From Escherichia phage vB_EcoS_AKS96, in the sequence record NC_024789.1: a stretch of DNA of 45,746 nt. One strand, written 5' to 3'. Every line of letters begins with the position of its first letter. The stretch's first letter is position 1. A program made the translations under genes and the position numbers. Below, one piece after another: positions 1 through 43,247 of the stretch. Below the pieces are notes generated by a model that did no database searches, was not told the DNA's origin, and worked only from the letters and a program-made list of their open reading frames with translations.

Positions 1-516
1 ATGTCAGAAGAGAAAAAAATTCACCAGAAGATTGGTAACTTCAAGGAGCTTTACAATAAGAAGTATGGCGACATTGCCAATCTTAAGATTAACCACAGAT
101 ACACTCCCGAGCAGGTATTCGACATGGCTGTAAGGTATTTCAGCTGGGCTGAAGAGCAGGCAATTAAAGCTATCGAGACAGCAAGCTTTCAGGGTGTCGT
201 AACGGAAAACCTTGTTCACAAGCCGAGGGTATTTACGATAACTGGATTCCAACTTTTCTGCGGCGTTGGTCATAATGCCATCAGTAAATGGCGCTCTTCG
301 CCTGGATTTGATGAGGTGATGGAGTTTGTGGATTCGGTAATCTTTGAGCAGAAGTATCAGCTTGGCGTTAACAACATCGTCAACCCTGGACTGATTGGCA
401 AGGACTTAGGCATCGATAAGCCGCAAGAGGTTAACATCAATAACGCTTCAAATGCCGTAGTGAACGATGAAGAAGCTATGAAGGCTGCGCTTGAATCAAT
501 AGTTGATAAACTTTGA
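1..516 (+). CDS. putative terminase small subunit
   Basis: 171-aa ORF immediately upstream of TerL; position and size only, no diagnostic motif. Confidence 0.4.
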   Translation: MSEEKKIHQKIGNFKELYNKKYGDIANLKINHRYTPEQVFDMAVRYFSWAEEQAIKAIETASFQGVVTENLVHKPRVFTITGFQLFCGVGHNAISKWRSSPGFDEVMEFVDSVIFEQKYQLGVNNIVNPGLIGKDLGIDKPQEVNINNASNAVVNDEEAMKAALESIVDKL

Positions 517-561
517 TATGTTGATATAATTACCCCATTCAATAAACGAGTGGGGTTTTTT

Positions 562-1077
562 ATGTTAGATAGAGCGAAGCCTATGCCGCCTCTGGATTTT
601 CTTAGGGGAATTCTGAGTTACAATCCTGAAACGGGAAAGCTAACGTGGACATCAAAAGTAAGTAGCAAAACCATAATCGGATCCGAGGCTGGGACTTTGC
701 ACAAAGCTAGCGGTCGATATCAAGTACAGATACAAGGGAAGATATACAAGAGCTCAAGGATTGCATTTTATTTGTATTATGGCTTTGAGCCAGTTGGCGC
801 GGTTGACCACATAAATCGTGACCCATCAGACGATAGGATTTCTAATCTTAGGGATGCATCGCTTAACCAAAACGGAATGAATAAGTCTATGATGAGCAAT
901 AATACATCTGGCTACAAAGGTGTTAGCTACTCAAAGAGAAGGAATGAGTATATTGCATATGTGAAAATAAATGGAAAAATGATGTTTGGAGGTTGGTTTA
1001 AGAAAAAAGAAGAAGCAGCAAAGGTGGCGGCATCAATGAGGGAGAGTATACATGGGGAGTTCTGCAATCATGAGTGA
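562..1077 (+). CDS. HNH homing endonuclease with AP2-like C-terminal domain
   Basis: HNH signature VDHINRDPSDDRISNLRDASLNQN; C-terminal GYKGVSYSKRRNEYIAYVKINGK block; start moved from GTG 550 to ATG 562; 3' end overlaps TerL start. Confidence 0.7.
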   Translation: MLDRAKPMPPLDFLRGILSYNPETGKLTWTSKVSSKTIIGSEAGTLHKASGRYQVQIQGKIYKSSRIAFYLYYGFEPVGAVDHINRDPSDDRISNLRDASLNQNGMNKSMMSNNTSGYKGVSYSKRRNEYIAYVKINGKMMFGGWFKKKEEAAKVAASMRESIHGEFCNHE

Positions 1078-2641
1078 AATAATTGTATGGGAAGACTTAA
1101 CATACCCAGAAAAGCTAGCTATAAAGGCACTATCAACTCATAGCTTCGAGGGTTTCTTAAGGGTGTGGTTTCAAATAAGTCAATCTGAGCGTTATATTCC
1201 TAACTGGCACCATAAGTACCTCTGTAGAATCATCGATGAGGTTATTAGCGGTCAACGCAGAGATACAATCATTAACGTAGCTCCCGGGGCCGGAAAAACC
1301 GAGATTACATCCATTCACTTCCCAGTATACTCAATGCTTAAACTAAAGAAGGTTCGCAATCTTAGCCTGTCATTCTCAGATAGCCTCGTGAAGCGTAACT
1401 CTAAACGGGTTCGTGACCTTATCAAATCGACAGAATTCCAGGAGTTGTGGCCCTGCAAGTTTGGCACATGTAAGGATGATGAGATTCAGGTTCTTGATGA
1501 TTCTGGTAAGGTTAAGTTTGAATCAATATCAAAAGCAATTGGCGGTCAGATTACAGGCGCTCGCGGTGGATATATTACAGATAACTATAGCGGCTGTTTG
1601 ATGCTTGATGATGTAGACAAAGCGGATGATATGTTCAGCAAAGTCAGGCGAGAGGCCGTGCACACTCTTCTCAAAAACACCATTCGTTCACGTAGGGCTA
1701 GCAGCGTTAAAGGTAAAGCCACGCCAATTCTGTCAATTCAGCAAAGGCTTCATACTCAGGATTCAACGTGGTTCATGACTTCTGGTGGTATGGGTATCGA
1801 CTTTGATGTAGTGAAGATACCGGCGCTGGTCACTGAAGAATATGTGAATGAACTCCCTGACTGGATTCGTGAGCAGTTCGAGAAGGACGTGCTTTCATCC
1901 GAGTACGTCGAGCGAGATGGTGTTAAGTATTACAGCTACTTCCCGCAGAAGGAATCTGTGCATGACTTGATGGCAATGTGGGACTCAGATCCGTACACAT
2001 TCCTAAGCCAGTACCAACAATCTCCAGTAGCTCTGGGTGGAAACCTGATCAATGTAGATTGGTTTGTTCGCCTCGATGAGAATAACAGACCTCCAGCCAA
2101 GTATGACTACCGATTCATTACGGCTGATACTGCATTAACCACTAAGAGCTATAGTGACTATTCAGTGTTCATGTTATGGGGAGTAAGGGGCAGGAAGGCC
2201 TACGTGCTGGACATGGTTCGGGGTAAGTACGAGAGCCCGGAGCTAGAAAAGACACTTGTTGAATTTGAAGCTAAGCACCGAGCAAACAACAAGACTGACG
2301 GCATCCTTAGGAAGATTATCATAGAGAAAAAGGCTTCAGGTATAGGTTTAATCCAGTCAGCAAGTCGGACGATGAGGACACCTATTGAACCCTACATTCC
2401 TGATGTTGATAAGCTTACGAGGGTTATGAGTGCCCTGCCGCAGGTTAAAGCTGGTAACGTATTCTTACCACAAGAAGCACCATGGCTAAATTCTTTCTTG
2501 TCTGAATTTGCAGCTTTCACTGCTGATTCCACTCACAAACATGACGATATCGTGGACGCATTCACTATGGGTGTTAACCTTGAGCTCAACTTAGCGGATG
2601 ACCCGAGAGCCCGCTTAATGCGACTAGCTGGAGTTAAGTAA
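1052..2641 (+). CDS. terminase large subunit
   Basis: 529 aa; Walker A-like APGAGKTE near N-terminus; RBS agggagag before ATG; position before portal. Confidence 0.8.
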   Translation: MGSSAIMSEIIVWEDLTYPEKLAIKALSTHSFEGFLRVWFQISQSERYIPNWHHKYLCRIIDEVISGQRRDTIINVAPGAGKTEITSIHFPVYSMLKLKKVRNLSLSFSDSLVKRNSKRVRDLIKSTEFQELWPCKFGTCKDDEIQVLDDSGKVKFESISKAIGGQITGARGGYITDNYSGCLMLDDVDKADDMFSKVRREAVHTLLKNTIRSRRASSVKGKATPILSIQQRLHTQDSTWFMTSGGMGIDFDVVKIPALVTEEYVNELPDWIREQFEKDVLSSEYVERDGVKYYSYFPQKESVHDLMAMWDSDPYTFLSQYQQSPVALGGNLINVDWFVRLDENNRPPAKYDYRFITADTALTTKSYSDYSVFMLWGVRGRKAYVLDMVRGKYESPELEKTLVEFEAKHRANNKTDGILRKIIIEKKASGIGLIQSASRTMRTPIEPYIPDVDKLTRVMSALPQVKAGNVFLPQEAPWLNSFLSEFAAFTADSTHKHDDIVDAFTMGVNLELNLADDPRARLMRLAGVK

Positions 2642-15141: not shown

Positions 15142-15906
15142 ATGGCAACGCCATTAAGCACTAAGTTTGAGAATCAATTACAAAGCTTGTTCCCTGGTGA
15201 GGTTGTTACGCTTATTGAAGTTGACGGAGGAAAGTTCGGCGCACCAGTTTACCGCTTTCATGGGGAGAACATAAGCTACACACCTGAAGAAATTATGATG
15301 GCTCAGTCAACTGGCCAGCTACTGCCAGCAAAGACAATTACGTTCCGTGGCGAAGAGTACGGTGCAAGGCCTTTCGGTATTCAGGGAATTAACATGACTT
15401 CAGACGGTAAGGCAAACAAGGTAACACTGGTTGTATCCAACGTTGACCAAAACATCTCGGCTCTTATCCGCACTTACAACGGTCTTGTTCAGGCTAAGGT
15501 TACTATCTGGATCACCCTTCGCGAGAATATTAACGAAGATGGCACCATTGCTGATGGGGATTACCGCAAGTTGGTTTACTTCATTGAGCGACCTAAGCAG
15601 GTTGACTACAACACGGCCTCATTTGAATTAACCAGCCCAATGGACATGGATGGTATTTATATTCCGGCCAGACTTGTTCAGTCAGTTTGTTATTGGGCTC
15701 AGCGCAATCAGTACCGATCAGGGAATGGATGTAACTATATGGGTGATAGATACTTCGACAAGGACAACAATCCTGTTAGCGACCCATCCCAAGACTTCTG
15801 TGCCGGAACGGTGACGGCCTGCAAGTTAAGGTTTGGCGCTAACAATCAATTAGACTTTGGCGGTTGTGCTGCTGCAAGCCTGCAAGCTAAAGCCAACCAA
15901 AACTAA
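15142..15906 (+). CDS. minor tail protein (lambda L-like)
   Basis: 254 aa; position. Confidence 0.55.
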   Translation: MATPLSTKFENQLQSLFPGEVVTLIEVDGGKFGAPVYRFHGENISYTPEEIMMAQSTGQLLPAKTITFRGEEYGARPFGIQGINMTSDGKANKVTLVVSNVDQNISALIRTYNGLVQAKVTIWITLRENINEDGTIADGDYRKLVYFIERPKQVDYNTASFELTSPMDMDGIYIPARLVQSVCYWAQRNQYRSGNGCNYMGDRYFDKDNNPVSDPSQDFCAGTVTACKLRFGANNQLDFGGCAAASLQAKANQN

Positions 15907-15916
15907 GGAGAGGGTA

Positions 15917-23561: not shown

Positions 23562-24530
23562 ATGAGCTTCAAGGTTTACACTAGCGACGAGTTAACCAAC
23601 GAAGCCTACCACAAGGAGTCAGACCATGTGTCTGGCTCTGGTCTGGCTCACATCTTCTCAACTTGCCCCGCTGCTTATAAGTTTGCAGAGCATGATGATA
23701 GCAATAAGGCGTTAAAGTTCGGTACATTAGCCCACACGGTTATTCTTGAAAACTATGTATTCGATGCGACTTACTATCGCCAGCCAGCGCAAGAAGAGTT
23801 TGAGGATCTGATTACTAGCAAGACTGCTTTGGCAACTCGGTTGAAGTCGATGGGTATTGCTGGAACATCTGGTAAGGATTATCCAGAATTAATGGAGATT
23901 CTGGCGCTGAGCGGTGAATCACTTAACGTATGGTGGGATATTCAGCGCTCTAGCGAGGTTAAAGCGAACGGTCGCGAGATTGTATCAGCTAAAGACTTTG
24001 ACACAGTACATGCGATGCGAGAGGTGCTGTGCGGCATTCCTGCATACAATGCGATAGTGAACAGTAAAACCGCTCAGCGAGAGTTATCAATCTTCGGTGA
24101 GATTAACGAGTGCGGCGTTAAGGTTCGTCTTGACCATGTCGATGTCGTTGATGATGTAGTTTATATCCGTGACTACAAGACGACTAGCGACGCATCTCCA
24201 TCTGGATTTGGGAGATTGGCCTTCAAGCATGGTTACTTGCTAAAAATGGCGCTTCAGCATGATTTGTTTGTTCGCGCCTTTAATGAGAAGCGTCGAGTTG
24301 TTGTTCAGCTTCTTTGCCAGGAAAAGAAAAGCCCATTCCTTCCAATGTGCTACACGATAACAAAAGAGCACTTAAAGGTTGGTAGATTGCAATACATGAG
24401 CGCCCTATCCACATACAAGCAATGCAAGAAACTTGATATTTGGCCTGGTTACGGATTTGGCGAAACAGAGATGGAACTGCAAGTTCCTGAGTATGAGATG
24501 AAGAAGTACGAAGATAGCACGAATAGCTAA
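23562..24530 (+). CDS. recombination-associated exonuclease (PD-(D/E)XK type)
   Basis: 322 aa; D-x(n)-IRDYKT motif; sits upstream of Erf and SSB. Confidence 0.5.
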   Translation: MSFKVYTSDELTNEAYHKESDHVSGSGLAHIFSTCPAAYKFAEHDDSNKALKFGTLAHTVILENYVFDATYYRQPAQEEFEDLITSKTALATRLKSMGIAGTSGKDYPELMEILALSGESLNVWWDIQRSSEVKANGREIVSAKDFDTVHAMREVLCGIPAYNAIVNSKTAQRELSIFGEINECGVKVRLDHVDVVDDVVYIRDYKTTSDASPSGFGRLAFKHGYLLKMALQHDLFVRAFNEKRRVVVQLLCQEKKSPFLPMCYTITKEHLKVGRLQYMSALSTYKQCKKLDIWPGYGFGETEMELQVPEYEMKKYEDSTNS

Positions 24531-33914: not shown

Positions 33915-35051
33915 ATGGCTATCGCTAAAATCACCAACGAAGAGTTAAAGCAAGAACTGGCTAACGGTATGACTAACAAGGCAATCGCAGAGAAGTACGG
34001 TATGAATATTCGTAACGTAGAGCTGCGTCGCAGCAAGTTGGCTAAGGCTGGGGATGGTCACGGTCGCGATGTGAGTAACCTAATTCCTCAGGGCTACATG
34101 GTTAAAGGTGTATCTAGCCTTGTTGATAATGATGGCAATGTGAAGTTGCAATGGGTTAAGTCCTCTATTGATGCAGAGAAGCTTGAGGAGATGATGAATC
34201 AAGCGCGAGAGGCATTCTCTAGCGAGCTACCAAAAGAAAAAGCAGTTAAATCTGAAGGTCTGAATTTTGATGAAGATACTTTAGCTATGTATCCAGTATT
34301 TGACCTTCACATTGGCGCAATGGCCCACAAGCATGAGTGCGGAGAAAACTACGACACAGCAACGGCAGAGAAAGTAATGAACGATTATTTTGACTACGCC
34401 GTACAGAAATCTCCAAATTCAAAGAATGCTGTACTAGTGCTAGGAGGTGATCTGCTTCATTATGATTCCTTGGAAGCCAAAACTCCAGCCAGTGGTCACA
34501 TCCTGGACAGTGACAGTCGCTACGCCAAGATTGTTTATGTTTGCATTCGAGCGGTTCGCCGCGCAATTCGAAACATGCTTAGCAAACATGAAAACGTAGA
34601 TGTTAAAGTTATATCTGGTAATCATGATGAAAGTGGTATGGTTTGGTTGCGGGCTGCGCTTGCTGCATTTTATGAGGAAGAGCCACGCGTTAGTATTGAT
34701 GTTAGTCCCGCGGCAATGATGGTAACTAAGTTTGGTTCTACAATGCTTGGTTTCACTCACGGGCATCAAATGCGTAAAGCTGATACTCGCCTTTCGGTTA
34801 TGGCTACTGACTGGCGACGTGACTTTGGTTTAAGTGATTATGTATACACCCACTCAGGCCACTGGCATTCACAGAAGATTACAGAGACAAATCTTGGTAT
34901 TGATGAGGTTCATGGTCAGCTTGGTTCACCAGATGCATATAGTGCGAATGGCGGGTGGCGCTCACAAAGGCAGGCTGCGGTAATCATATATCATAAAGAG
35001 TTTGGTGAGGTTGGTCGTTTTATCTGTCGCCCAGAAATGTTTAATAAATAG
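33915..35051 (+). CDS. calcineurin-like metallophosphoesterase with N-terminal HTH-like segment
   Basis: motifs DLHIG, GGDLLHYD, GNHDE, THGH, GHWH; N-terminal MTNKAIAEKYGMNIRNVELRRSKL. Confidence 0.7.
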   Translation: MAIAKITNEELKQELANGMTNKAIAEKYGMNIRNVELRRSKLAKAGDGHGRDVSNLIPQGYMVKGVSSLVDNDGNVKLQWVKSSIDAEKLEEMMNQAREAFSSELPKEKAVKSEGLNFDEDTLAMYPVFDLHIGAMAHKHECGENYDTATAEKVMNDYFDYAVQKSPNSKNAVLVLGGDLLHYDSLEAKTPASGHILDSDSRYAKIVYVCIRAVRRAIRNMLSKHENVDVKVISGNHDESGMVWLRAALAAFYEEEPRVSIDVSPAAMMVTKFGSTMLGFTHGHQMRKADTRLSVMATDWRRDFGLSDYVYTHSGHWHSQKITETNLGIDEVHGQLGSPDAYSANGGWRSQRQAAVIIYHKEFGEVGRFICRPEMFNK

Positions 35052-35065
35052 CACAAATAGTCAAG
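35047..35065 (+). promoter_or_regulatory. degenerate box copy (f)
   Basis: AATAGCACAAATAGTCAAG, followed by terminator rather than minus-10. Confidence 0.3.
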
Positions 35066-35070
35066 AAACT

Positions 35071-35092
35071 ACCCGCGAAAGCGGGTATTTTT
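35071..35092 (+). terminator. rho-independent terminator
   Basis: acccgc-gaaa-gcgggt plus T-run. Confidence 0.6.
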
Positions 35093-35116
35093 GTTTCACA
35101 CAACTGAGGAGGTAAT

Positions 35117-35608
35117 ATGAATTGGAATGATTTTCTCGAATATAGAGATGGAAAGCTTTACTGGACAGATCCACACTCAACAAAATTTAAGCCAGGGGAT
35201 GAGGCTGGATGTAGGCATCATAGGGGTTATCATTATATAAGGAGATATAACACCACGATGTCAAGGCATAGGATAGTATGGACAATGTTTAATGGAGAGA
35301 TACCGGAAGGCATGGAGATTGATCACATAGACCATGACGTTGAGAATGATCGGATTGAAAACCTAAGAATGGTTACAAGGAGGCAGAACAATCAAAACAA
35401 AAAGCTAGATGAAAGAAATACTAGCGGACATGTTGGGGTTAGTTGGAACAAGAAGACAAAAAAATGGAGAGCAATGATAGGTATAAAGGGTAATGACGGG
35501 AAGCGGAAAACGGTATATGTTTATTATGGTGACTCTTTCGACGACGCGGTATTGGCAAGGAAGAAAGCTGAAGCTGAATACTCATTTCATGAAAATCACG
35601 GAAAATAG
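35117..35608 (+). CDS. HNH homing endonuclease with AP2-like domain (paralog of 562-1077)
   Basis: EIDHIDHDVENDRIENLRMVTRRQNNQN; GHVGVSWNKKTKKWRAMIGIKG. Confidence 0.75.
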   Translation: MNWNDFLEYRDGKLYWTDPHSTKFKPGDEAGCRHHRGYHYIRRYNTTMSRHRIVWTMFNGEIPEGMEIDHIDHDVENDRIENLRMVTRRQNNQNKKLDERNTSGHVGVSWNKKTKKWRAMIGIKGNDGKRKTVYVYYGDSFDDAVLARKKAEAEYSFHENHGK

Positions 35609-35648
35609 CACTAATTGCTAAAACACAAATCAAAAGATGGGGTATATT
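35604..35648 (+). promoter_or_regulatory. conserved box-plus-minus-10 cassette (copy g)
   Basis: AATAGCACTAATTGCTAAA, 22 bp, TATATT. Confidence 0.5.
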
Positions 35649-35681
35649 TACTCCATCAAAACAAAACGAGAGGATACAAAG

Positions 35682-35867
35682 ATGGCTAAGTTCACACAAT
35701 CAGATGCACAGATTGAAGTTAAAGATGTTGGTTTTGGTAAGACATTTCGGATTGCACAGGCTTACGGATCAAGCGAAGAAGATATCAAGGTTGATGTTAT
35801 TAACCTTACGGAGAAAAATGCAAGTGAAATCGCTTATGCAATCCTTGCGGCACTTGGAGAGCGTTAA
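35682..35867 (+). CDS. hypothetical protein
   Basis: 61 aa from ATG 35682 after leader aacgagagga. Confidence 0.4.
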   Translation: MAKFTQSDAQIEVKDVGFGKTFRIAQAYGSSEEDIKVDVINLTEKNASEIAYAILAALGER

Positions 35868-36055
35868 TGTTGCAAACAATCAAAGCTGAGATGGTAAAGG
35901 TTGGTGATGAAGTTTTGTTCTCAAACTGCCCACCGCAGGTAGTTAAGGCTACAAGCCTTGAGTATTACCCTGGCTGTATTTTCGTAATGATTAAGACCAT
36001 GGGTGGTAACTGCTTCCCAATTAATGTAAACACACTTATTTGCGTAAACCGTTAA
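35867..36055 (+). CDS. hypothetical protein
   Basis: 62 aa, TAATG overlap. Confidence 0.35.
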   Translation: MLQTIKAEMVKVGDEVLFSNCPPQVVKATSLEYYPGCIFVMIKTMGGNCFPINVNTLICVNR

Positions 36056-36067
36056 GAGATTATCAAA

Positions 36068-36241
36068 ATGACTAAATTATTCTGCGTTAGCAACAAATCA
36101 AAATCACTGCCTTTCACTGTAAACAACCCTTACAGTGGTGAGTACCAGGGGGATGGTAATTATAAGATTTATGGCGATGACATGACTTGGATCTTAGCCC
36201 CGATTGATGGAGAATTGGTGGAATTCATTATCGCAGACTAA
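36068..36241 (+). CDS. hypothetical small protein
   Basis: 57-aa ORF below track threshold, RBS aagag, followed by terminator. Confidence 0.3.
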   Translation: MTKLFCVSNKSKSLPFTVNNPYSGEYQGDGNYKIYGDDMTWILAPIDGELVEFIIAD

Positions 36242-41650: not shown

Positions 41651-41820
41651 AAAGGAAGGGCGTATCAACTAGTTGGTTGGTTTTAGCTTTCACAAGGAGC
41701 TTTCCTTTATGTACGCGTTATGGCTTGTTCAACCGTGTAGAGAAATTGCCATATTTACGCCATCCACGCCAGTTTACGCGCTGGTTACAAAATAAATCCC
41801 TTATATAACAACCCTTTAGA

Positions 41821-41843
41821 TTTATTATTATTATTATTATTAT
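41821..41843. repeat. (TTA)n microsatellite in AT-rich intergenic region
   Basis: about 7 TTA units; shorter counterpart at 22129-22140. Confidence 0.7.
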
Positions 41844-42060
41844 ATATGTTATTCCGTAACCATGATTATCTGAGATATTGGTGATATTTTTTTGATATTG
41901 CGCGGCGCATAAAGATTTAGATAAAGAGATAGGGATGCAAGCGGGGTGGCGAAAATGGCTTAACAGACCATAACGGCAATAACAGCCTTGATACGACTAG
42001 CGTCAGCATGTAACAATTTAGCATAACGTGCGATTACCGAGTTGAACGTGTAAATAACGC

Positions 42061-42088
42061 TTGCGACATTCACCAATCATGGTAAGAT
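42061..42088 (+). promoter_or_regulatory. candidate sigma70-type promoter for plus operon 42119 onward
   Basis: TTGCGA, 16 bp, TAAGAT, then leader aaacgagagga. Confidence 0.4.
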
Positions 42089-42118
42089 GCTCTCACACCA
42101 AACGAGAGGAGTAGTAAA

Positions 42119-42634
42119 ATGAGTAATACAATTCGTGAAGCAAACCCGACACTTGGCGACCTGGTGCGGCACCTTGTTAAGATGGCTCTTAATTCAGAGG
42201 ATGGAAGCGTAACAGTTCCCGTTAAGTTGCTTTACAAGAATCTTTACGGAGAAATTGATAACGACTATGTAGCAGCTGACTTTAGACCTGGCGGCAAATA
42301 TTCACTTCCAAAGCTTAAGGCTTCCTATGTTTCAAATACAGCCAGCAGAATGCAGGAAGTTAAAGACGCAGATAAGCGCGCAAGGTTCTCTTGTGGAGAG
42401 ATGGAGTATAATGGTGATGAGCATTATTGCGTAAAAATCACAATGGTCAACGGTGCTGTTAAGAATGGAACCCGAGCTAAGACAAACAGTCAATTAGAGG
42501 AGAAAGCGGTAAGCGAGTTTAAAGCTAGGCTACTTAAGCTTTCCCCCAGCGTAGCAGGAATGAGTGGAGATGAACTGAAGGGTGCGGTAGCTATGATTAA
42601 CGCATATCAGGAAATGATTAAGGAGACTAAATAA
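42119..42634 (+). CDS. hypothetical protein
   Basis: 171 aa, first gene of operon, gagagga RBS. Confidence 0.45.
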   Translation: MSNTIREANPTLGDLVRHLVKMALNSEDGSVTVPVKLLYKNLYGEIDNDYVAADFRPGGKYSLPKLKASYVSNTASRMQEVKDADKRARFSCGEMEYNGDEHYCVKITMVNGAVKNGTRAKTNSQLEEKAVSEFKARLLKLSPSVAGMSGDELKGAVAMINAYQEMIKETK

Positions 42635-43176
42635 TGTTTGATTTCAACGAGGATAAACTTACTCATGAGCAGGTGTTAGCGGTAGCAGCGGCAGACGATC
42701 TGCCCCCATTACGAGTATCAATAATTGCAAATGGTTATCGACAATCTGCAAATATATGGCCTGAGCTGGATAAGGTCAAAGATTTTGAACTAGACAGTGG
42801 AACTTTAAAGATTACTGAAATACTCATCAAGCAAGGGATGAACTCCAAAGGCGTTGTTGGTCTCAGGTCACTATATGAGGCGGCACGCAAAGTTAAGCCA
42901 TTCGATGGGCGAAATGGAGTAATGGAGGAGATTAAGGAAGTCATCATTCCAAATCTGGATAAGCTTGGCTATGCATGCCTAATTGGCGATAAGATTTATA
43001 TCAACCCTAGATTGCTGGATGGCAAGCAGGACTGGACTTACAAGGTCAAGCCACTGGAAGATGATTTCAACATCGAGGATTGTGAGAAGGTTGTCGACGA
43101 GATTATTGTCAAGGCTATCGATGAGCAGATCGAGAAGCTCAAGCGAAAGAAGAAATATCTCCTGACCGGTAAATAG
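42634..43176 (+). CDS. hypothetical protein, short paralog of 37794-39377
   Basis: 180 aa; N-terminus MFDFNEDKLTHEQVLAVAAADDLPPLRV and internal KGVVGLRSLYEAARKV...CLIGDKIYINPRLL match the large protein. Confidence 0.5.
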   Translation: MFDFNEDKLTHEQVLAVAAADDLPPLRVSIIANGYRQSANIWPELDKVKDFELDSGTLKITEILIKQGMNSKGVVGLRSLYEAARKVKPFDGRNGVMEEIKEVIIPNLDKLGYACLIGDKIYINPRLLDGKQDWTYKVKPLEDDFNIEDCEKVVDEIIVKAIDEQIEKLKRKKKYLLTGK

Positions 43177-43216
43177 CACGAATTGCTAAACAATAAATCG
43201 GGTAGTCAGCTATGAT
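43172..43216 (+). promoter_or_regulatory. conserved box-plus-minus-10 cassette (copy h)
   Basis: AATAGCACGAATTGCTAAA, 22 bp, TATGAT; contains stop TAG of 42634-43176. Confidence 0.5.
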
Positions 43217-43247
43217 TACCCCATCAACCAAACGAGAGGAATAAAAG

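Follow-up and report, generated by a model that had tools for sequence, protein, structure and literature searches.

What is an HNH nuclease gene doing between the two terminase genes of Escherichia phage vB_EcoS_AKS96, and is a similar gene elsewhere in the same genome an element of the same kind? The window analyzed here, a stretch of 45,746 nucleotides (NC_024789.1), covers the whole genome of this phage, a T1-like coliphage of the genus Rogunavirus (Drexlerviridae). The open reading frame (ORF) between TerS and TerL, which encode the small and large terminase subunits, is called gene 1, its junction locus 1, and the similar ORF starting at position 35117 gene 2, at locus 2. An initial reading of the nucleotide letters, made without database searches and called here the sequence-only reading, took gene 1 for a mobile endonuclease that had invaded the packaging operon and gene 2 for its paralog. 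Comparison with relatives supports the mobile-endonuclease reading. Both are very probably homing endonuclease genes (HEGs) that stand free of any intron, belong to the HNH_3/I-HmuI type, encode a C-terminal AP2 domain and are maintained as selfish cassettes at intergenic junctions. The evidence consists of the domain architecture, intact catalytic residues, precise empty sites, a sporadic distribution across three phage groups, signs of purifying selection, flanks that are mosaic, and copies in decay.

Two HNH-AP2 proteins with a complete active site

The two proteins share an N-terminal module, an HNH core and an AP2-like tail, an architecture anticipated by the sequence-only reading and borne out by sequence comparison and a confident structure model. 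The HNH_3 beta-beta-alpha-metal core is detected in both above the curated cut-off of 24.8 bits, with scores of 37.9 bits (gene 1) and 72.9 bits (gene 2); the Pfam matches do not include the classic HNH family up to an E-value of 0.1. For AP2, the scores are 19.7 and 21.4 bits, respectively, relative to a cut-off of 33.3, and an HNH-AP2 relative in phage UDF157lw scores 30.8 bits. Precomputed matches to PF00847 and PF13392 occur in most homologues of the gene 1 protein. An AlphaFold2 model of gene 1, built on a 59-sequence alignment, has a mean pLDDT of 95.7 and is confident throughout, including the beta-beta-alpha core. Its AP2 region forms a three-stranded antiparallel sheet on one C-terminal helix, superposable with solved AP2 domains. 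This predicted fold, together with the many homologues carrying PF00847, supports the assignment of the C-terminal region to AP2.

A profile of seven family members matches I-HmuI (1U3E) with an E-value of 4.8e-5. Residues D82, H83, N95 and N104 of gene 1 (numbered from the methionine at 562) align with D74, H75, N87 and N96 of I-HmuI, and the DH, NLR and QN residues of the window proteins sit on I-HmuI D74/H75, N87 and N96. The catalytic His with its preceding Asp, the structural Asn and the metal-binding Asn are all present in both. Across the alignment of 59 homologues, D82, H83, N95, R97 and N107 are invariant and N104 nearly so; N104 is invariant across the seven family members, and D82, H83, N95, N104 and N107 are invariant across both lineages. 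The 'GKL.W' motif, by which the sequence-only reading recognized the N-terminal module, falls in the first beta hairpin of an I-HmuI-like N-terminal DNA-binding sheet, and the module is real; G25 of the motif is invariant, and W29 is invariant inside the gene 1 lineage.

When aligned, as the sequence-only reading had proposed, the two window proteins are 37% identical over 115 amino acids (E 5e-21), and each is matched from end to end by phrog_99, 'HNH endonuclease' (E 1e-62 for gene 1, 1e-57 for gene 2). The word paralog holds insofar as the two belong to the same large family; they represent different lineages, with no recent duplication.

One or both genes might instead be decaying or nuclease-dead remnants that act at most as AP2-type DNA-binding proteins, repressors for example, with gene 1 the likelier candidate given its lower HNH_3 score (37.9 versus 72.9 bits). 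DNA-binding domains of HEGs have been co-opted as regulators, I-TevI represses its own promoter (PMC10448857, PMC2988022), and decayed copies of the present genes do exist, in phages phiKP26 and e4/1c. Such a fate is nevertheless highly improbable for the window genes: all catalytic and metal-binding positions are conserved in both proteins, both ORFs are full length, the model is confident through the catalytic core, and dN/dS over the whole ORF is only 0.05-0.22 in the gene 1 lineage.

Empty and occupied terminase junctions

The closest records by DNA search are AHP24, AHS24, AHP42, BECP10, C119 and Rogue1. AKS96 was described together with AHP24, AHS24 and AHP42 by Niu et al. 2014 (PMC4070988), and their paper makes no mention of endonucleases or homing. 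Gene 1 already bears the name 'HNH endonuclease' in the AKS96 record, and the matches of gene 2 carry the same annotation in AHP42 and C119. A tblastn search of the window found no third HNH-like gene.

The gene 1 cassette is present at approximately 99% identity in four other Rogunavirus phages, AHP24, AHS24, AHP42 and BECP10. Uninterrupted TerS-TerL junctions, which the sequence-only reading had suggested looking for, do exist: Rogue1, JK06, C119, phiKP26, phiJLA23 and Sf12 have a precise empty site, the record span being approximately 560 bp shorter. Other occupants of the junction are a different HNH-AP2 gene in UDF157lw (identity of 32% with gene 1 and of 45% with gene 2), a 37-aa ORF in Sd1-like phages and a 95-nt spacer in e4/1c.

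Outside the genus, the nearest relatives of gene 1 (57% amino acid identity) occur in Klebsiella Webervirus and in the ETEP102/p111 phages, again between TerS and TerL. Among 347 Webervirus records matching a junction probe from phage NJS1, at least 23 cover the HNH part (coverage of at least 80%), a few further records have their sequence opened at the junction, and the remaining matches consist of two pieces lying approximately 560 bp closer together. The gene 1 lineage thus occupies the junction in only about 7-10% of Webervirus records, with about 90% lacking the gene. In Skatevirus-like phages (of Salmonella, Klebsiella and E. coli), a relative with 43% identity lies ahead of a TerL of the unrelated Terminase_3 family; carriers are again a minority, at least 17 of 148 (coverage of at least 80%). 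Linkage to TerL was also considered for the wider HNH clade and fails there, as relatives below approximately 40% identity adjoin DUF551, SNF2 helicase, portal and DUF4055 genes. The sequence-only reading had named a gene found in every relative at the same place as a sign of domestication. This is not what is seen, gene 1 being sporadic among relatives and gene 2 variable, and mobility is not refuted by this test.

Selection and exchange around gene 1

Webervirus alleles of gene 1 show dN/dS values of 0.05-0.22 (whole ORF) with dS up to and beyond 1. Low dN/dS at such high dS implies that the protein has been kept functional long-term, even though most genomes lack the gene. The flanks of these alleles are mosaic. 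In the case of K64PH164C4, the HNH gene and the 3' end of TerS are 97.6% and 96.3% identical, respectively, to Jem_ER55, whereas the 5' end of TerL is 98.6% identical to NJS1 and only 85.5% identical to Jem_ER55. Shuffling of this kind argues against a fixed partnership between the HNH and TerL proteins. It also fits the published pattern that 'nuclease genes occupy boundaries of genetic exchange' (PMC10448857).

These data bear directly on whether gene 1 could be a domesticated packaging factor, like gp74 of HK97, that aids terminase in cutting DNA and is kept for the benefit of the phage. Its position just ahead of TerL is constant, an 8-nt overlap with TerL is conserved in three phage groups, one of them with an unrelated TerL family, purifying selection is strong, and its divergence tracks that of TerL; selfish and packaging roles are, moreover, not mutually exclusive according to the literature (PMC10448857). 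On the other hand, the gene is missing from most close relatives whose terminase genes are 84-88% identical, as from roughly nine-tenths of the Webervirus records, and HNH and TerL alleles are shuffled relative to each other. According to PMC4070988, the genomes of AKS96 and of the three phages described with it are circularly permuted, that is, packaged by the headful, which leaves no need for a cos-cutting HNH protein. The gene 1 protein also matches HNH_3 instead of the classic HNH family, and its distant relatives adjoin helicase, portal and DUF551 genes. We therefore consider a packaging role as the reason for retention very unlikely, although it may exist as a side activity.

Closer to the window, the comparison with AHP24 shows 26 differences (5.5%) in 1-471, the 5' nine-tenths of TerS, only 4 in 472-2040 and approximately 26% divergence in 2040-2620. 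This places an exchange boundary some 45 nt upstream of the cassette, with just those 4 differences spread over the final 45 nt of TerS, the HNH gene and the opening 970 nt of TerL. This profile was considered as a sign of recent homing and rejected, as it shows exchange boundaries near the gene and not the direction of homing.

A separate patch concerns the 3' end of TerL. Window positions 2040-2640 are 89.7% identical to e4/1c and approximately 74% identical to AHP24, AHP42, Rogue1 and all other relatives, while the rest of the region is approximately 99% identical to AHP24. Phage e4/1c carries a frameshifted HNH-AP2 gene directly downstream of TerL, between TerL and the portal gene, and the patch may be the co-conversion footprint of a lost endonuclease gene. 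Elsewhere, blastn does not match window 41718-43225 to its counterpart in AHP42 (record L101, 42273-44127), a replaced segment between genomes that are otherwise 97-98% identical.

Start codons and the gene 1/TerL overlap

In the sequence-only reading, gene 1 started at position 550 and overlapped TerL by 26 nt; both details need revision. GTG 550 falls within the 3' arm of a hairpin, whereas ATG 562 comes after the T-run that follows it. The GenBank protein starts at 562, and the N-terminus read from there (MLDRAKPMPPL) is conserved in ETEP102 (MINAKQLPDL) and Webervirus (MSKAKPLPDL). ATG 562 is the likely start.

For TerL, the HNH-free alleles are informative. The stop codon of TerS and the start codon of TerL share an ATGA in Rogue1, JK06, C119, phiKP26 and Sf12. 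Rogue1 and JK06 have it at the junction CTATGAAG, where the sequence reads ...GATAAACTATGAAGACATTAGTTTGGGAAGAA, and the product from this start (MKTLVWEE...) aligns with the window product MSEIIVWED... from ATG 1070. An ATG with the HNH stop 5 nt later is likewise found in ETEP102 (ATGGCTAA), NJS1 (ATGGATAA) and KFS-SE2 (ATGGCTAG). The 26-nt figure assumes ATG 1052, the start of the longest ORF and the GenBank-style choice, which has no counterpart in ETEP102 or KFS-SE2. Because the TerL start homologous to that of HNH-free alleles is ATG 1070, the overlap is 8 nt, ATGAGTGA. ATG 1070 is the conserved start, although ATG 1052 may also be used.

Database records are inconsistent at this point. 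Rogue1 TerL (record L001, 2013-2039) is annotated from an internal ATG, 24 nt past the ATGA overlap, AHP42 TerL is annotated from L101:1334, and several Webervirus records (L095-L098, position 791) use an ATG that gives a 26-nt overlap. The start conserved among these phages is an ATG that either overlaps the TerS stop or lies 5 nt ahead of the HNH stop. JK_39 of JK06 was considered as an insert between TerS and TerL and rejected, being a frameshifted N-terminal piece of TerL.

A predicted promoter and a hairpin carried by the cassette

The -35-like hexamer of the predicted gene 1 promoter lies within the last codons of TerS, and its -10 box ends 1 nt ahead of a terminator-like hairpin (Table 1). 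This candidate promoter is annotated as a promoter in AHP24 and AHP42, and equivalent hexamers with 17-nt spacers are present, as judged by eye, in ETEP102 and NJS1. The sole Shine-Dalgarno-like purine run before ATG 562, GGGG at 552-555, is in the 3' arm of the hairpin. Since HNH-free junctions have none of these elements, promoter and hairpin belong to the cassette. As RNA, the hairpin folds with -14.1 kcal/mol (z -3.56), and 0 of 200 shuffled sequences are as stable, whereas a transcript from 537, the start predicted from the -10 box, is essentially unstructured (-0.4 kcal/mol). In the ETEP102/p111 and Webervirus alleles, the elements follow one another in this same order, but their hairpins, of -11.6 to -17.2 kcal/mol, are unrelated in sequence.

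The layout suggests how gene 1 may be regulated. Transcripts arriving from TerS would fold the hairpin and then either terminate or hide the ribosome site, while those begun at the cassette promoter, around 537, would lack the 5' arm and hence be translatable for HNH. TerL would be read from the same message, since the final 24 nt of the HNH gene contain both its ribosome site and its start codon. Indeed, a Shine-Dalgarno-like GGGGAG (1054-1059) and the TerL start codon sit inside the 3' end of gene 1, whose conserved C-terminal codons, HGEF.NH, provide both the GGGGAG and the context of the start.

It is conceivable, if somewhat doubtful, that the cassette has in this way taken over the expression of TerL, having placed a terminator between TerS and TerL and supplied a new promoter as well as the ribosome site and start context of TerL. 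The same HNH lineage holds the 8-nt overlap ahead of two unrelated TerL families, which would hint that its tropism is for the start regions of terminase genes and not for a single DNA sequence. If this tentative idea is true, TerL output would depend on a selfish element, and the arrangement would serve as a retention device.

Gene 2 and its states in relatives

Gene 2 lies downstream of a gene with a weak Metallophos match, annotated in RefSeq as a DNA repair exonuclease; the flanking genes at both loci are those named in the sequence-only reading. That reading placed gene 2 between the phosphoesterase-like gene and the lysis genes. The first neighbor is correct, while on the other side three small ORFs (35637-36241) precede the holin gene. 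The degenerate box and the terminator that it reported ahead of gene 2 are both real. The 60-nt stretch 35066-35125 containing the hairpin has a fold z-score of -2.01, and a strong ribosome-site-like GAGGAGG lies at 35106-35112. No promoter-like site was found ahead of gene 2, which is probably expressed at a low level via read-through.

The variable segment of locus 2 spans 35052-35603, from the stop of the upstream gene to the shared box. Gene 2 is intact in AHP42 and C119 (97% amino acid identity), and ACG-M12-like phages have it at 84-86%. In phiKP26, the start and a mutated 3' part are retained and approximately 290 bp are deleted. Rogue1 has an unrelated 65-aa ORF (phrog_19819) at this locus, as do AHP24, AHS24, BECP10 and UDF157lw, judged by their shorter record span, and Sf12 has another HNH gene in place of gene 2. 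Locus 2 is thus found intact, decayed, replaced or without the gene, as expected from the known cycle in which such genes invade, decay and are lost.

The 19-nt box and an empty third site

The 19-nt box TAGCACGAATTGCTAAA(AC) occurs in 7 copies in the window, compared with 0.02 expected, at 24515, 32391, 33076, 35606, 43174 and 44023 on the plus strand and 40821 on the minus strand. Every copy has an ATG approximately 55-60 nt downstream of it, a TATAGT/TATATT-like hexamer approximately 20 nt downstream and a conserved TAC..CATC motif. From their sequence context, the boxes look like promoter units of small gene cassettes.

Several HNH cassettes open with the box right after the upstream stop: those of UDF157lw (TerS-TerL), e4/1c (TerL-portal) and AHP42 (minor tail genes). 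The last of these marks a third HNH-AP2 site, which is empty in the window at 15900-15915. AHP42 has there a 567-bp insertion between two minor tail protein genes (AHP42_22, record L101, 15979-16467), with sides 97.5-98% identical to the window, a box-like promoter ahead and last codons that supply the ribosome site of the downstream gene.

The cassettes could, then, have spread mainly by homologous or illegitimate recombination at the repeated boxes and operon junctions, with the nuclease little involved. Beyond the three box-led cassettes, the locus 2 cassette is flanked by two boxes out of the seven in the window. Yet there is no box at either border of the gene 1 cassette, and box recombination leaves unexplained why it is nuclease genes that vary at these sites and why they are under purifying selection. 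It is also compatible with homing, as ectopic entry via the boxes could be followed by spread through homing. As the chief mode of spread, we give recombination at the boxes little credence, a chance comparable to that of a packaging role.

Table 1. Positions of the elements at the two loci in the 45,746-nt window
Feature	Position	Strand	Remarks
TerS (small terminase subunit) gene	1..516	+	Pfam GP3_package 34.3 bits vs cut-off 29.4; TerS annotation in AHP24
Sigma-70-like promoter, predicted	503..530	+	TTGATA 503-508, 16-nt spacer, TATAAT 525-530; 11/12 matches, TG before -10
Inserted cassette relative to HNH-free genomes	517..1069	+	-10 promoter part, hairpin, HNH-AP2 ORF
Hairpin + T6, intrinsic-terminator-like	532..561	+	9 pairs (532-556), then ATG 562
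HNH-AP2 endonuclease gene 1	562..1077	+	171 aa; 100% identical to GenBank 'HNH endonuclease [Escherichia phage vB_EcoS_AKS96]'
Gene 1 modules	N-terminal beta module ~592-750, HNH core ~754-876, AP2 ~907-1056	+	Profile matches and structure model
TerL (large terminase subunit) gene	1070..2641	+	Terminase_6C 35.9 bits; conserved start ATG 1070
Degenerate 19-nt box TAGCACAAATAGTCAAGAAAC	35049..35069	+	Directly after stop of upstream phosphoesterase-like gene; left border of variable cassette
Terminator-like hairpin TACCCGCGAAAGCGGGTA + T-run	35070..35093	+	Hairpin 35070-35087; annotated terminator in AHP42
HNH-AP2 endonuclease gene 2	35117..35608	+	163 aa; HNH core ~35267-35395, AP2 ~35426-35569
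Perfect 19-nt box TAGCACTAATTGCTAAAAC	35606..35624	+	Overlaps gene 2 stop; right border, common to all relatives whatever the site content

Proposed mode of spread and its limits

As free-standing HEGs, the two genes would spread in mixed infections. Modeled on I-HmuI and on T4 MobA/MobE, the enzyme would bind a long site in a related phage whose allele lacks the HNH gene, and would nick or cut it there. For gene 1 this site would be near the TerS-TerL junction, for gene 2 downstream of the phosphoesterase-like gene. Recombinational repair from the HNH-bearing genome would then copy the cassette, with some flanking sequence, into the recipient, and the carrier genome would be protected, either because the insertion splits the site or because its flanks differ. 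For gene 1, our guess at the target is the pair of conserved sequences flanking the empty junction, GATAA(A/G)CT in TerS and TTTGGGAAGA in TerL. The gene 2 remnant of phiKP26, the frameshifted copy of e4/1c and the mixed HNH/TerL alleles of Webervirus are the signs of decay and exchange in this family.

Several points weigh against this interpretation. Neither window protein reaches the gathering score of AP2 (PF00847). Where the enzymes cleave, that they nick instead of cutting both strands, and that inheritance is biased are inferred by analogy, and sequence alone cannot separate an active HEG from a domesticated nuclease (PMC10448857). The flanks of the Rogunavirus phages that bear gene 1 are near-identical, as evidenced by the few differences between the window and AHP24 in 472-2040, and within this genus the gene could simply have been inherited vertically in one clade. 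Among the window, NJS1 and ETEP102, HNH identity (57%) is close to TerL identity (49-51%), and such matched divergence is explained equally well by long co-descent with losses and by repeated homing. As to regulation, the promoter and the start near 537 are consensus predictions, and the three sequence-unrelated versions of the hairpin could not be aligned by MAFFT for an RNAalifold covariation analysis; separate folds were used instead.

Both genes appear to be new members of a well-described class. HNH-AP2 HEGs near phage terminase genes have already been described, and for the field as a whole there is little new in this respect; that the present two home is predicted from their sequences. 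The two genes and the empty third site explain part of the differences in size and sequence between near-identical O157 phages, and should be masked in phylogenies. The TerL start is probably mis-set in several database records. The conserved design of promoter, hairpin and ORF offers a simple, testable case, outside the T4 model, of a selfish nuclease cassette fitted into a late operon.

Comparison with known systems

The HNH proteins of the HK97 gp74 type are, like gene 1, adjacent to terminase genes. Those proteins are always present in the module and take part in cleaving cos (PMC10448857), whereas gene 1 is sporadic, has the HNH_3 and AP2 architecture and occurs in headful-packaging phages (PMC4070988). 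The phages carrying gene 1 show neither constant presence of the gene in a phage group nor, according to PMC4070988, cos-type packaging.

I-HmuI of Bacillus phage SPO1 (PDB 1U3E) is an HNH homing endonuclease that nicks one strand. It resides inside a group I intron and has a helical C-terminal half with a helix-turn-helix, whereas the window proteins are free-standing and have an AP2 fold. The HNH-AP2 homing endonuclease family of phages, cyanobacteria and protists, which includes the 'IPA-HNH' genes of vibriophage ICP1 (Barth et al. 2023, PMC10448857, with reference 45 therein), has the same domain order of N-terminal HNH and C-terminal AP2. The ICP1 genes are likewise free-standing, group close to essential genes such as terminase and mark places where genetic exchange has its boundaries (PMC10448857). 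They are too divergent for the HNH_3 Pfam profile, which the window genes match directly. The literature searched holds no experimental test of any HNH-AP2 member from Drexlerviridae.

The position and apparent regulation of the window genes recall the free-standing HNH genes mobA and mobE of T4, along with three regulated HEGs, I-TevI, segB and Aeh1 mobE, which are also intergenic and beside essential genes (Edgell, Gibb, Belfort 2010, PMC2988022). The HNH enzymes of T4 mobA and mobE nick DNA and show a high frequency of inheritance (PMC2988022). For I-TevI, segB and Aeh1 mobE, long transcripts fold a hairpin that covers the ribosome site, and messages that can be translated come from a promoter in or beside the hairpin (PMC2988022). 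The gene 1 cassette, as its layout is read from the sequence, would work similarly, its promoter lying in the upstream gene's 3' end, its ribosome site being covered by a hairpin and its own transcripts lacking that hairpin. It differs from the T4 cases in phage family, in DNA-binding domain, in having a host-type sigma-70 promoter instead of a T4 late promoter and in a hairpin that is also terminator-like. In T4, signals for the downstream essential gene that are embedded in the HEG favor retention of the HEG (PMC2988022), and the TerL signals inside gene 1 are comparable to these.

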